Notes: generated by a model not told the origin, from the letters alone. 64,000 nt of DNA from Bacteriovorax stolpii (GCA_945883845.1 CAMCYI010000004.1:1475-65474), one strand, 5' to 3'; positions 24,422 through 64,000 are shown, counted from the first letter of the stretch. Numbers and translations are program-made.

Positions 24422-26073
24422 AGTTCGCCGTCATCTTCACCATCATTGATGGGAGTGACATTTCTCTTTTGTGCTTCAGCGGCCACTGTGCCGGGACTGT
24501 TCTCAACCATAAATTTCACCATACCGCTGACAATTTTCGAAAGTCCTGAATCACGGATGACGAGAATCTGCTCGTTGTTGCTTTCTGCACCTTCAGAGAA
24601 ATTAAATGACGTTCCAAGAATTGCAAAATTCGGAGTCGCCAGAACCTTGTGATGAATCTTCGCATTCACTTTTGTGTTCTTGCCCGCTACTTTCACCCAG
24701 TTGTTTCCGTAAATTTTTGGAGCAACGTAAACTTTTGAGCGCACTTCATTGAGTTGTGGTTTTGAGAGACCTTTCACCCAAGGATTACTTTTATCTACTG
24801 AATAGACTTTGGTCTTCTTCGCTTTATCAATCGTGAGCTTGTATCCAGACATACCGAGAAATCCACTCCACTCACGTAGAGCGAACGGAGTATCGCCGAC
24901 ACTCATAAAATCAAATTTTCCTGTTTCCTGAAAATCTTTCTGCGCGCGGAATAGGAGTGCCTGATCCACGGCCACTGAAGAGTAAGCAAACTGAAGCATC
25001 CGGATAGAGCCTTTCTCACGCTTGATGAGATCAGCAATGATGTTCTCACCGATCTTGCGCATTCCTCCCCCCGGAGAGAAAGTCACAACAAGGGACGGCT
25101 CAGGATAAGCTTCAAGTGTATTCGGATCAACACCAGGACCTGTGACCTGATAGGCACCGTTCAATGGATAGTCTCTTCCGCGAAGGAGAAACCCTTGATC
25201 AAGGGTCTTCGTCAGTTCGTGGTGAACCACATTGGCGAGAATCCAAGATTTCATCGTTAAGAAATGGTTGGCATTCGGAACCGATTCCGGTGGAAGTGGA
25301 TCAGTACCTTTAAGATCACCTTCGGGGTCAAGACAAGAGCGCGTAAGGTTACCAGATGAGAAGAGAACTTTGGCCTGATCAGGGAGGGACCAGTCGAGGG
25401 CCGTCATTTTCTGGTGATTGAGGCCAACAGGCATCACACCTGTGAAGTCAATTCCGTTTTCTTTCATGTGCTCAACAAGAGCGGCAACTTCCGGACGAAG
25501 GCTAACAACGTTCTTTTGATCGACTCCGATTTTAACAGTCACGCCAGACTTTGATTTTTCAATTAAGGCCTCAGCGATCACATCAAGGTCGAAATCAAAA
25601 ACGTTAAGGATAATTTCTTTCTTCGCACTCATGATAAACTTGCGCCAGATTTCGATCATGTTACTGGCAGGGACAAGTTTGTCATCAGCATAATATGGGT
25701 GATTCACGAAAATTTTGAGATCAGAATAACCTGGTTGACCGATCGGAGGCATGAGACGTGTGTGGCCCTTTACTGGAGCAAAAGAACGGGCACTGTTCTC
25801 TTCAAGGGCCTTGAGGAGATTAGCGCGGTCTTCGCCGATCAGACTATTTTCTTCCATGAGCATGCGGACAACTTCGTGTTCCGGCATCTTCTTAATGGCG
25901 GGCCGAAGGGCCTTATCTCCAGGTTTTACTACCAGTGCCTCACGGGCCTTCTGGAAAATCGATCCGTAATCCGGAGCCGAATCAATCGAAGACGGTGTCC
26001 GATTGTTCATGTTCGAACAGGAAATGAGGGCGAGAGCTAAGAGACTTAAGAATTGAATGGATAATTTTCTCAT
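24418..26073 (-). CDS. Phospholipase D-superfamily lipoprotein (two HxK half-sites)
   Basis: Lipobox LALISC; HQKMTALD..SSGNLT and HHKVLATP..SFNFS...NNE. Confidence 0.75.
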   Translation of the reverse strand: MRKLSIQFLSLLALALISCSNMNNRTPSSIDSAPDYGSIFQKAREALVVKPGDKALRPAIKKMPEHEVVRMLMEENSLIGEDRANLLKALEENSARSFAPVKGHTRLMPPIGQPGYSDLKIFVNHPYYADDKLVPASNMIEIWRKFIMSAKKEIILNVFDFDLDVIAEALIEKSKSGVTVKIGVDQKNVVSLRPEVAALVEHMKENGIDFTGVMPVGLNHQKMTALDWSLPDQAKVLFSSGNLTRSCLDPEGDLKGTDPLPPESVPNANHFLTMKSWILANVVHHELTKTLDQGFLLRGRDYPLNGAYQVTGPGVDPNTLEAYPEPSLVVTFSPGGGMRKIGENIIADLIKREKGSIRMLQFAYSSVAVDQALLFRAQKDFQETGKFDFMSVGDTPFALREWSGFLGMSGYKLTIDKAKKTKVYSVDKSNPWVKGLSKPQLNEVRSKVYVAPKIYGNNWVKVAGKNTKVNAKIHHKVLATPNFAILGTSFNFSEGAESNNEQILVIRDSGLSKIVSGMVKFMVENSPGTVAAEAQKRNVTPINDGEDDGEL

Positions 26074-26225
26074 TCTTTAATTGTAGACTATTCTATTTCT
26101 CATCTCATCAGTGGCAGAAATTGCCATCTCAAGATACATCCTGACACTGCCACTCTGCTCTCAGTGACCTCTTAGCACCGTGTAAGGATTGACATGATCC
26201 ACACTCATTCTAACATCTTAGCCAC

Positions 26226-26241
26226 TGGCACGACTTTAGCA
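26226..26241 (+). promoter_or_regulatory. Sigma54 (-24/-12) promoter
   Basis: TGGCACGACTTTAGCA = GG-N10-GC, one mismatch to TGGCACG-N4-TTGC. Confidence 0.7.
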
Positions 26242-26285
26242 TTAAGGGACTCGTGGCACGAAGCCCATCCCCCAGGAGGGAATCT

Positions 26286-26516
26286 ATGAAATCACTCTTA
26301 CTTATAACCATCATGACTCTTTCAACTCAAGCATTTGCTCACATCCATGAACTTCCGTTCGGCGATATGATCAAGGAAAAGAAAGTCACAATGATGAAGC
26401 CGATGAAGGCAAATCTCTACTCAAGCTTCAAAGGAATCAACCTTGAAGGCAACAAGACTGAGACCAAAATTGCGATGAAAAGTTCTACTCGTTCGCCGGC
26501 CCTCGAACAGAACTAA
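26286..26516 (+). CDS. Small secreted protein (76 aa)
   Basis: AGGAGG RBS; signal peptide ending AFA. Confidence 0.7.
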   Translation: MKSLLLITIMTLSTQAFAHIHELPFGDMIKEKKVTMMKPMKANLYSSFKGINLEGNKTETKIAMKSSTRSPALEQN

Positions 26517-62122: not shown

Positions 62123-63054
62123 GATTCTGGTCTGCCAAAAATCAACTCAGAACCTCTCTTCTTTCTGCTTTCAAAGAACCATTTCCATCCGTTTTCTTTG
62201 TGAGTGACATCACACTTCAGTCGATGGAGAAAGTAATGAGGTACCTGAGGATGAAGGTGATGAGATGTATGATTAATAAACTGGGCAAAGACCCAGCGGT
62301 CAATGAAGGGAGAAAAACTTAATGTACGGGTAAGTTCATTCTGGATACGCGAGTTCAGGACATTTTTTTCAGTAAATCCTTCGGGGACAGCGAGATAGCA
62401 GTGCTGTGACAGGAGAATCGGATCAGCGATGAGGATAAACACCAGAATACCAGCAAGAACAAGGCCACCATAATTCCAGCCAAGATAATACGACAAAGTC
62501 AGATGAAAAATCGGTGGCCAGAGTGCACTCAGGATAAAGAAGAATTTATCACGGGAATTTTTCGCAAATTTATTGGCGTACGGGAAATAATAAAAAGTCG
62601 AGAAGAGAAATCCCGAAGAAAAAACCGGCACGTGATACTTCCAGCAGAAATCAAAAACTTTTTGCGATAAAGGTGTCAGATGTTTAAGAGACTTTAGAGC
62701 AACCGTTGGGTCTTTGCCCTGAATGCCGTTCCAGCGGTGATGCAGGAAATGAAGTTTCTTCCAGGAATAAAAAGGTATTGTAGAAAAAAGTGAACCGATA
62801 ATACCTGAAACAATATTAAGCCATTTAGTTTTAAACTGGCTTTGGTGGCCGGAGGAGTGAACAATGCTGAACCAGTGGAACATGCACAGGCCATAAATGA
62901 GCGAAGCGAAAATCTTCAGTAGAACAGAATGAAAAGAAAACAACCAGAACGTAATCAGGGTGATGCTCAGGACCAGCAAAAAATCTAAGAGGCCCACAAA
63001 ATCCCGGGGCCCATGCAAAGAAGAATTTTTAAACTCGACCTGCTGATCCAACAT
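62119..63054 (-). CDS. Membrane fatty acid desaturase-family protein
   Basis: His boxes HSSGH, HFLHH, HTSHHLHP. Confidence 0.85.
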   Translation of the reverse strand: MLDQQVEFKNSSLHGPRDFVGLLDFLLVLSITLITFWLFSFHSVLLKIFASLIYGLCMFHWFSIVHSSGHQSQFKTKWLNIVSGIIGSLFSTIPFYSWKKLHFLHHRWNGIQGKDPTVALKSLKHLTPLSQKVFDFCWKYHVPVFSSGFLFSTFYYFPYANKFAKNSRDKFFFILSALWPPIFHLTLSYYLGWNYGGLVLAGILVFILIADPILLSQHCYLAVPEGFTEKNVLNSRIQNELTRTLSFSPFIDRWVFAQFINHTSHHLHPQVPHYFLHRLKCDVTHKENGWKWFFESRKKRGSELIFGRPES

Positions 63055-63059
63055 GATCG

Positions 63060-63611
63060 TTAAGACATCGGCTTAGACGACATGTAACCAAGCTCACCCA
63101 GTCGTTTTCCCGTCTGAGCATAATATGGGGAAGTCGCTTCCGGCGCGAAAGTACCCATGCCATCAACATAACGGTTAAACATACAGAAGGCGGCAGCAAC
63201 GATGACGGTATCGTGAACCTCTTCCTCCGTCGCTCCGTTCTCAATTGCTTTTTTTACATCAGCAGTTGTCACAGTACGTCCGTCTTTCTGTACTTTTTTT
63301 GCTATCTGCAGAAGTGCTTTCATTTTTGGGGTAACGTCAGAGCCTTCGATATCTTCAGCAACTTTCTGGGTATAACCCACATCTTTTTTAAGACAATATT
63401 CCGCAGCGGCCGCATGCGAACGGTGACAAAAATTACATTCATTGAAATAAGAAACGGCCCCTGCAATAAGTTCTCTTTCACTCTGCGTGAGGGTTGAGGG
63501 TCCGCGGAGAATTGTTTCAGCGAGATTATTCAAGGCATTTGCTGTACTGGGTTTATAGGCCATAAGACCTAAGATTCCGGGAGCATCATTATTAAGATTG
63601 ATATGGGACAT
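63060..63611 (-). CDS. AhpD/carboxymuconolactone decarboxylase-family peroxidase-related protein
   Basis: ERELIA..VS..NECNFCHRSH; AAGGAG RBS before ATG 63611. Confidence 0.9.
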   Translation of the reverse strand: MSHINLNNDAPGILGLMAYKPSTANALNNLAETILRGPSTLTQSERELIAGAVSYFNECNFCHRSHAAAAEYCLKKDVGYTQKVAEDIEGSDVTPKMKALLQIAKKVQKDGRTVTTADVKKAIENGATEEEVHDTVIVAAAFCMFNRYVDGMGTFAPEATSPYYAQTGKRLGELGYMSSKPMS

Positions 63612-63667
63612 GGCGATCTCCTTTTTAAGACTCCTCAATGTCATTTCATTACGGTAAGATCATACTT

Positions 63668-64000
63668 ATGCTCACACCCATAAGCCAGATCATTACTCAT
63701 GGAAGTTTTGCTTCAGGCTGGTACTCATTTCTTAACGACGCGGGTTCCTGTCATCAGGTGCAGGCCAGAATCTTAGAAAATTCACTGAAGAAGCACCCGT
63801 ATCTCAAAAGTAAAAAAGACTTTCTGTCTCTCCCCCCTGCGGGCTTCGATGAGCAAATAAGTCGGATTCAGATTCCACATGGGACACGTCTTCAACCGAC
63901 GAGTGGTTCGGGTCACCAGGAAAAGCTTGTTCCTTATACAAAGCCATTTTTGCAACAGCTCAATCGTGCTCTGAATCCCTGGCTCTTTGATATGGCCCGC
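63668..64000 (+). CDS. GH3 (auxin-responsive, acyl-adenylate amide ligase) family protein, partial
   Basis: Not in ORF track. Open from ATG 63668 to the window end: ...QARILE...DFLSLPP...PTSGSGHQEKLVPYTKPF...ALNPWLFDM; TSGS..K..PYT is GH3-like. Confidence 0.7.
   Translation, partial: MLTPISQIITHGSFASGWYSFLNDAGSCHQVQARILENSLKKHPYLKSKKDFLSLPPAGFDEQISRIQIPHGTRLQPTSGSGHQEKLVPYTKPFLQQLNRALNPWLFDMAR

Follow-up and report, generated by a model that had tools for sequence, protein, structure and literature searches.

This study concerns a stretch of 64,000 nucleotides (nt), referred to as the window, which corresponds to positions 1475-65474 of contig C4 in a 3.62-Mb assembly of 63 contigs with 45% GC, and in particular the promoter-like -10 hexamers that stand directly in front of the start codons of a number of its genes. 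The relatives of the RbgA-type GTPase encoded in the window (60320-61207, minus strand) all come from Bacteriovoracaceae, Bacteriovorax or 'Halobacteriovoraceae' metagenome-assembled genomes (MAGs) with 54-66% identity, JBKJPL01 'Bacteriovoracaceae bacterium ant_bin.459' being among the sources of these relatives, and the source organism is a member of the family Bacteriovoracaceae in the predatory phylum Bdellovibrionota. An initial annotation had proposed a pervasive leaderless-mRNA signature for the window, with 12 genes between 26073 and 63668 that have a -10 box 6-8 nt before the ATG and no Shine-Dalgarno (SD) sequence. The 12 hexamers, spacers and start codons were all found in the sequence as proposed and are listed below with the extent and strand of each site. 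The spacer is the number of nt between the end of the -10 hexamer and the ATG, so that a spacer of 6 puts TANNNT at -12 to -7.

26071-26088, minus strand: TACAAT (26080-26085), spacer 6, ATG 26073; gene 24418-26073, a PLD-domain lipoprotein of 551 amino acids (aa).
27757-27774, minus strand: TAAAAT (27766-27771), spacer 6, ATG 27759; gene 27184-27759, 191 aa with an N-terminal hydrophobic segment.
40319-40336, plus strand: TAAGAT (40322-40327), spacer 6, ATG 40334; gene 40334-40900, a PnuC-type nicotinamide mononucleotide transporter.
40991-41008, plus strand: consensus TATAAT (40994-40999), spacer 6, ATG 41006; gene 41006-43243, a secreted protein of 745 aa.
43346-43364, plus strand: TGtTAAAAT (43346-43354), spacer 7, ATG 43362; tandem paralog 1, 559 aa, secreted.
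45116-45133, plus strand: TGaTAAAAT (45116-45124), spacer 6, ATG 45131; tandem paralog 2, 584 aa.
46958-46977, plus strand: TGaTAAAAT (46958-46966), spacer 8, ATG 46975; tandem paralog 3, 555 aa.
50040-50057, plus strand: TGgTAACAT (50040-50048), spacer 6, ATG 50055; gene 50055-50468, an Rrf2-family regulator.
54818-54835, plus strand: TGaTATGAT (54818-54826), spacer 6, ATG 54833; gene 54833-55435, a 3'-5' exonuclease (DNA_pol_A_exo1).
60292-60309, minus strand: TAAAGT (60301-60306), spacer 6, ATG 60294; gene 59161-60294, an MFS transporter and a weak candidate.
61205-61222, minus strand: TGtTAGGTT (61214-61222), spacer 6, ATG 61207; gene 60320-61207, the RbgA/YlqF-type GTPase.
63652-63670, plus strand: TAAGAT (63655-63660), spacer 7, ATG 63668; second in-frame ATG of ORF 63638-65185, a candidate start.

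Nine of these sites have a spacer of 6 (26073, 27759, 60294 and 61207 on the minus strand; 40334, 41006, 45131, 50055 and 54833 on the plus strand), the remaining spacers being 7 at 43362 and 63668 and 8 at 46975, and TGn precedes the hexamer in six of the 12. For the two longer geometries, the transcription start site (TSS) predicted from the spacer of 43362 is either -1 or the A of the start codon itself, and a leader of 1-2 nt is predicted for 46975. In 11 of the 12 genes the 5'-most start of the open reading frame (ORF) is the listed ATG, the exception being 63668, whose ORF opens with ATG 63638. The Pfam profile NMN_transporter aligns with the PnuC-type protein (profile 2-175, residues 3-181) and the Rrf2 profile with the product of 50055 (profile 2-131, residues 3-134), and since both matches begin at residue 3, the proposed starts are exact; the divergent intergenic regions in front of these two genes measure 114 and 126 nt, respectively. 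A signal peptide beginning at M1 was found in six window genes, among them 24418-26073 (lipoprotein-type, Pfam PLDc_2, with a 411-nt upstream gap) and 41006-43243 (105-nt gap). The gene 27184-27759, which has an upstream gap of 112 nt and a good hexamer in weak surroundings, does not extend further upstream because an in-frame TAA lies inside its hexamer.

The products of 43362, 45131 and 46975 share 48% and 43% identity; as tandem paralogs they are not independent, and the 12 sites amount to about 10 independent cases. Among 40 family genomes, the sole detectable homolog of these secreted paralogs (43362-48642) lies in a genome of the same genus (G033:C6:193093-194655, 29% identity), and it carries TAAAAT followed by 6 nt and ATG. 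The paralog family is apparently lineage-restricted and expanded in this genome. No homolog of the PnuC-type gene 40334-40900 (E<=1e-20) was found in 40 other genomes of the family, one of the same genus included; this gene may be accessory or acquired, yet it has a leaderless-type promoter. At 54833, the TGA stop of the preceding gene 54266-54820 also supplies the TG of the extended -10, so that the promoter starts in the last codon of the upstream gene.

The surroundings of each site were scored with a position-weight matrix built from 221 spacer-6 sites outside the window, with the three fixed bases omitted, and compared with a null of 1,128 TANNNT-N6-ATG sites elsewhere in the genome. The context is strong at 43362 (99.6th percentile of the null), 46975 and 50055 (both 99th), 41006 and 45131 (both 98th), and moderate at 63668 (97th), 40334 (95th), 61207 and 54833 (both 94th). 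In the divergent pair 63060-63644 (minus strand) and 63638-65185 (plus strand), the first ATGs would make the two genes overlap by 7 nt, an overlap abolished by the start at 63668; the minus-strand start of this pair has TACCGT at spacer 6, which scored as chance (49th percentile). The membership of the 12 genes holds for most of them, while two or three are weak and three are tandem paralogs, and the best explanation is that at least 8-9 of the sites belong to a leaderless class. Between 26 and 64 kb, 9-10 of about 42 genes have TANNNT at spacer 6 (p ~1e-7 against a chance rate of ~2% per position), which is also 2-3 times richer than the genome average of 7.4% (p 0.003-0.0008); none of the roughly 21 genes at 1-26 kb of the window has such a hexamer at its ATG.

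The signature extends over the whole genome, where it takes the form of a sharp positional peak. The gene set consisted of ORFs of at least 100 aa that passed a self-trained codon-usage score, from which overlapping shadow ORFs were dropped; 3,164 ORFs were kept, and 3,138 of them had a usable first ATG, the start being defined as the first ATG after the stop. TANNNT stands at spacer 6 in 231 of the 3,138 starts as opposed to 35-80 at neighbouring spacers, and a hexamer beginning at -12 is found at 7.1% of first ATGs compared with 1-2.5% at all other positions. The rise is steeper for stricter motifs, 9- to 17-fold and at spacer 6 alone: TANAAT occurs 75 times at spacer 6 and about 8 times elsewhere, TGNTANNNT 59 times and about 3 times (12 at spacer 7), and TTG-N19-21-TANNNT 53 times and about 5 times. 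Bare TANNNT is little enriched genome-wide at spacers 7 (69) and 8 (43), and spacer-6 enrichment was looked for at second or later in-frame ATGs throughout the genome with none seen.

An in-frame TAA or TAG opens the hexamer in 125 of the 231 spacer-6 genes, and an ORF with such a hexamer is unable to extend upstream of its start; in these 125 genes the promoter hexamer also shuts the reading frame four codons 5' of the ATG. Internal ATGs are unsuitable as a control because in-frame stops are depleted there, and neighbouring in-frame positions were used instead. At the in-frame positions -9, -15, -18 and -21, TANNNT does not rise (1.0-2.4%), which rules out an artefact of the ORF-bounding stop codon.

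The bases around the spacer-6 hexamers are those of a promoter. T at -15 and G at -14 reach frequencies of 0.41 and 0.43 (G background 0.19), and T at -35 (0.50), T at -34 (0.46) and G at -33 (0.30) correspond to a 17-bp spacer to the -10 hexamer. The comparison set consisted of the TANNNT hexamers found at spacers 15-39 in front of these genes (n=1679). TG at -15/-14 was present at 59 of 231 spacer-6 sites and at 116 of the comparison sites (odds ratio (OR) 4.6, p 1e-15), and TTG 16-18 bp upstream at 53 of 231 and 156 (OR 2.9, p 2e-8). C at -1 has a frequency of 0.43 as opposed to 0.30 (99 of 231 spacer-6 sites and 887 of 2907 other first ATGs, p 2e-4). Taken together, TGn, TTG at 16-18 bp and C at -1 point to sigma-70 promoters whose +1 is the A of the ATG. 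Measured against an antisense control, extended -10 elements are in excess by 57 at spacer 6 and by 30 at 21-40 nt, and the excess is about 0 at other distances, which makes spacer 6 the commonest recognisable promoter-to-start geometry.

The observation of the initial annotation that these genes lack an SD sequence while many other genes have a clear one is borne out. An SD-like 4-mer is present at 8 of 204 spacer-6 ATG starts compared with 949 of 2166 other ATG starts, a low count that is partly forced because the hexamer fills the SD site. Clear SD sequences were found, for example, at 40219 and 57677 on the minus strand and at 55534, the 4-mers GGAG, GAGG and AGGA peak at -11 to -9 genome-wide, and the anti-SD of the 16S rRNA (CACCTCCTTT) is present, which indicates that SD-led and leaderless-type initiation coexist. 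By a distance and strand proxy, 18% of the spacer-6 genes are operon-internal compared with 42% of the SD genes (82% and 58% not internal, respectively). For starts set by the longest ORF, the signal is found in 8.6% of ATG, 3.3% of GTG and 1.6% of TTG starts. The depletion inside operons and the bias towards ATG both suit a promoter, and the latter is also indirect evidence for a predicted use of the 5'-terminal AUG. Signal peptides are about as frequent in the leaderless class (41%) as in SD genes (40%).

The spacer-6 signal is present in 135 of 1559 probable operon-first genes (8.7%, or about 7% after background). The class comprises roughly 170-190 genes, i.e., about 6% of all genes, with about 175 sigma-70-type members and about 15 members of a sigma-28 type described below. 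The proposed signature is thus genome-wide and sharp, but "pervasive" is too strong for a class that makes up ~6% of genes and ~7-9% of transcription units.

Relatives were examined at the level of single genes and of whole genomes. In 12 of the 15 RbgA orthologs from Bacteriovoracaceae MAGs that have an aligned ATG, TGnTA stands at -15 to -11 at a fixed distance from the ATG, and it is kept although the neighbouring genes differ; synteny around RbgA is not conserved in these relatives. Of ten exonuclease homologs in other genera, two have a 6-nt spacer (G009 with TGaTAAGTT and G184 with TATATT) and two further ones a -10 at spacers 8 and 10. This conservation rescues 61207 and 54833 among the three candidates that lie close behind another gene.

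ORF scans of the relatives had too little power at 200 kb each and were replaced by 400-kb samples and whole-genome pattern counts. In G064, a member of another genus of the same family (400 kb), 35 of 383 starts have TANNNT at spacer 6 compared with 21 at spacer 11 and 5-14 at most of the rest. In G117, which belongs to another family (a 3.77-Mb single contig, 50% GC, Bdellovibrio-like; 400 kb), 15 starts each of 465 have it at spacers 6 and 7 compared with about 4-6, and in G045 from a third family (58% GC, 167 kb) the count is 9 of 167 at spacer 6 compared with 0-4. The equal split between spacers 6 and 7 in G117, as opposed to almost exclusive use of spacer 6 in Bacteriovoracaceae, may mean that lineages differ in how far the TSS lies from the -10. 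The same pipeline applied to 400 kb of Lachnospira multipara (Firmicutes, 35% GC) gave no peak (6 of 313 at spacer 6), with SD-like sequences at 65%. The possibility, already raised in the initial annotation, that there is no positional enrichment over an AT-rich background is contradicted by the sharp spacer-6 peak and this flat control.

For whole-genome counts, which do not involve gene calling, a reversed pattern is a control that ignores the reading frame, and the same-frame spacer 9 was used instead; the N6/N9 ratio was determined in 151 genomes of the phylum, 26 of the same family and 125 of other families. For TANAAT, the ratio exceeds 1 in 26 of 26 same-family genomes (pooled 1.34) and in 103 of 125 other-family genomes, and the pooled value is 1.01 in five Lachnospiraceae (Firmicutes) controls. 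For TGNTANNNT, it exceeds 1 in all 26 (pooled 1.53) and in 108 of 125 (pooled 1.38), with a pooled value of 0.96 in the five controls. With a z of 8.2 for the combined signal, the source genome ranks first among the 151. The leaderless-type class is family-wide in Bacteriovoracaceae and, with a weaker signal in other Bdellovibrionota, probably phylum-wide.

Mapped 5' ends are available for a member of the same phylum, Bdellovibrio bacteriovorus HD100, for which 140 TAP-enriched TSSs from the attack phase have been tabulated alongside gene coordinates (Karunker et al., 2013, Table S2; PMC3627812). In our recount of this table, the annotated start codon begins exactly at the TSS in 25 of the 140 cases and leaders are 1-5 nt long in 12 others, so that a leader length of 0 is the mode; another 28 TSSs fall inside annotated ORFs, which suggests that the annotated starts of these genes are mis-set (PMC3627812). 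FliA (sigma-28) promoters account for 21 of the 25 zero-leader TSSs (PMC3627812), and the four other cases (Bd2223, Bd2998, Bd3241 and Bd3867) all have a sigma-70-type -10 hexamer followed by 6 nt and the TSS. The word "leaderless" appears nowhere in the text of that study (PMC3627812). A TSS on the start codon has thus been demonstrated by others in a relative, and we infer the same position for the source organism.

Because the FliA TSSs of HD100 lie at start codons, the FliA geometry was sought in the source genome. In 18 genes, 7-8 nt separate CCGA[TA]A from the first ATG, compared with about 2 genes per position. Sigma-28 promoters have elements of the TAAA-N15-GCCGATAA type, and TAAA about 15 nt further upstream was recognised by eye in several of the 18 genes. 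This geometry matches that of the HD100 FliA promoters whose TSS is the start codon. One such site lies in the window, outside the range covered by the initial annotation:

13615-13631, minus strand: FliA-like -10 CCGAAA (13626-13631), 8 nt before ATG 13617; gene 12697-13617.

The geometry and statistics of the leaderless-type promoters, their partial conservation and their spread among relatives were established directly, and they make it very likely that the spacer-6 sites form a genuine leaderless class, in which promoters abut the ORFs and transcripts begin with the A of the ATG. According to this model, RNA polymerase would take the A of the ATG as its first base, or start 1-2 nt earlier at spacers 7-8, and give rise to a leaderless mRNA. 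Most of the promoters would be of the sigma-70 type: TANNNT occupies -12 to -7, many sites have TGn at -15/-14 as well, and a -35 element of the TTG type lies 16-18 bp before the hexamer. A smaller second class would be of the sigma-28/FliA type, with a -10 (CCGATAA) ending 7-8 nt before the ATG. The mRNA would carry no SD sequence, and the ribosome and fMet-tRNA would bind the 5'-terminal AUG directly, by analogy with leaderless mRNAs studied elsewhere (PMC6028130; PMC3898074; PMC4007540; PMC12340547), so that translation from this AUG in the source organism would be SD-independent, while the leaderless class would coexist with ordinary SD-led genes.

Several points weigh against this model. 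About 50-60 of the 231 spacer-6 matches are expected by chance, and the starts derive from an in-house ORF and coding-potential filter and not from a validated gene caller. In the window, the -35 elements of the individual promoters are weak, and so is the context at 60294 (89th percentile), 26073 (87th) and 27759 (57th), which places these three in the top 11-43% of the null. The genes at 54833, 60294 and 61207 sit 12-25 nt behind a gene on the same strand (25 nt at both 60294 and 61207), so that read-through from upstream is possible; they are exceptions to the rule that such genes are first in their unit and would need internal promoters, and 61207 has in addition AGGT as a possible weak SD. 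Conservation is partial, as the element is missing in two RbgA orthologs (L003 and L005) and in several exonuclease orthologs, and the support from HD100 comes mainly from FliA promoters and depends on the annotated starts of that genome.

Of the alternatives, the one that survives best, and which we nevertheless regard as improbable, accepts the promoters as real but has most of these genes transcribed chiefly from other promoters further upstream or by read-through, so that leaderless transcripts would be a minor product, or else places the true start downstream, which would make the leaders short. The three window genes close behind a neighbour are what this explanation would predict, as is 63668, which is not the first ATG of its ORF, and the HD100 TSSs within annotated ORFs show that starts can be mis-annotated. 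However, the profile alignments of PnuC and Rrf2 and the signal peptides fix starts in the window, non-first ATGs have no spacer-6 enrichment, the excess of extended -10 elements at spacer 6 is larger than at any leadered distance, and the conserved distance from the -10 to the ATG in orthologs indicates selection on that distance.

It is very unlikely that the AT-rich hexamer is no promoter but a translation signal without SD inside a longer leader, comparable either to the A/U-rich S1-binding or unstructured regions of Bacteroidota or to the "non-SD RBS" (ribosome-binding site) of GeneMarkS-2 group B. The hexamers are indeed A/T-rich and sit where an RBS would be, and the -35 elements at individual window sites are poor. 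However, TG at -15/-14, C at -1 and TTG at a distance of 16-18 bp would not accompany an RBS-like signal, nor would such a signal be fixed to the nucleotide at a single spacer; it would be as common before operon-internal genes, from which the hexamer is depleted (18% compared with 42%), and in B. bacteriovorus mapped primary 5' ends are found at this very geometry. Chance in an AT-rich background, or a start-picking artefact in which the ORF-bounding in-frame TAA or TAG lands at -12, is scarcely credible: TANNNT is a loose motif, starts were taken as the first ATG after a stop and an in-frame stop opens more than half of the hexamers, but this explanation was tested and rejected by the flat in-frame positions, the rise of the stricter motifs at spacer 6 alone, the flat 35% GC Firmicutes genome and the excess in ORF-free whole-genome counts, which is absent in Firmicutes.

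With the leaderless class as the preferred explanation, a wider proposition can be put forward as a tentative and rather doubtful one, namely that leaderless expression is ancestral and phylum-wide in Bdellovibrionota and involves at least two sigma factors, that the FliA attack-phase (prey-hunting) regulon is in good part expressed as 5'-AUG mRNAs, and that a bias towards SD-independent translation in the non-growing attack-phase cell would be a switch tied to the predatory life cycle and not a neutral relic.

The leaderless mechanism as such is well known, and no new mechanism is described here. A survey reported that 8 of 33 delta-proteobacterial genomes contain leaderless genes, with a mean of 15.8%, at a time when Bdellovibrio was classed there (PMC3160421), and a "-10 region adjacent to ORFs" was scanned for across phyla (Zhong 2025, PMC12340547). 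The phylum may already be covered by these computational surveys, which are broad in scope (PMC3160421; PMC12340547); the Bdellovibrio/Bacteriovorax lineage is not named in the accessible parts of either text, and no delta-proteobacterial species is named in the supplements of Zheng 2011. Our literature search found no paper pairing "leaderless" with Bdellovibrio, Bacteriovorax or Bdellovibrionota, so that the remark of the initial annotation, which did not know abundant leaderless translation as a recognised trait of this lineage, was a fair one. For the genus, precise TSS annotations do not yet exist, as stated in a study of Bacteriovorax chromatin (Marinov et al., 2025; PMC11789641). The additions made here are modest and consist of the family-wide and probably phylum-wide spread, the prominent extended -10, the use of the same geometry by FliA promoters and the unremarked support in published TSS data.

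Annotation of Bdellovibrionota genomes and MAGs should allow leaderless starts, as starts are otherwise mis-set, a case in point being the 28 of 140 HD100 TSSs inside ORFs. Predatory bacteria are under development as "living antibiotics", for the engineering of which compact promoter-plus-start cassettes (TGnTAnnnT-N6-ATG) are of interest. The lineage also adds a Gram-negative, SD-using case in which SD-led and leaderless initiation can be compared within one cell, and the data point to an unremarked and testable connection of leaderless mRNAs with the FliA regulon of the attack phase.

Leaderless genes occur sporadically in E. coli and its elements, such as lambda cI transcribed from PRM and tetR of Tn1721, where a transcript beginning with AUG is translated without an SD sequence. 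Those are isolated cases, whereas the source genome has a genome-wide class with a statistical signature. Bacteroidota and Cyanobacteria, which represent GeneMarkS-2 group B, have non-SD initiation regions that resemble it in having an A/T-rich motif near the start and no SD; however, the group B motif also precedes internal operon genes and is not a promoter, whereas the motif of the source genome comes with TGn, a -35 element and a fixed distance to +1, and avoids operon-internal genes. The TSS map of HD100 is from the same phylum and shares the sigma-70-type -10 followed by 6 nt as well as the FliA geometry, in which CCGATAA ends 7 nt before +1 (CCGATA 8 nt) (PMC3627812). It differs in that HD100 belongs to another family and FliA promoters of the attack phase are over-represented among its mapped TSSs, whereas the sigma-70 class dominates in the source genome with ~175 genes as opposed to ~15.

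The closest comparison is with the leaderless genes of Actinobacteria and Deinococcus-Thermus, described in M. tuberculosis (Cortes 2013, PMC3898074) and D. deserti (de Groot 2014, PMC4007540). Common to both sides are TANNNT 6-8 nt before the start, the lack of an SD, a mostly operon-first position and a genome-wide positional signal. The extent is different, with 25-60% there as opposed to ~6% of genes and ~7-9% of transcription units in the source genome. The genomes of GeneMarkS-2 group C have a leaderless signal in 25-50% of operons (PMC6028130), a share that the 8.7% of operon-first genes found here does not reach. The source organism differs further in being a Gram-negative predator with 45% GC that has SD sequences in a third or more of its genes, and its leaderless class, known here from sequence, is distinguished by a prominent extended -10 TGn, the almost exclusive use of ATG and an extra sigma-28 class.

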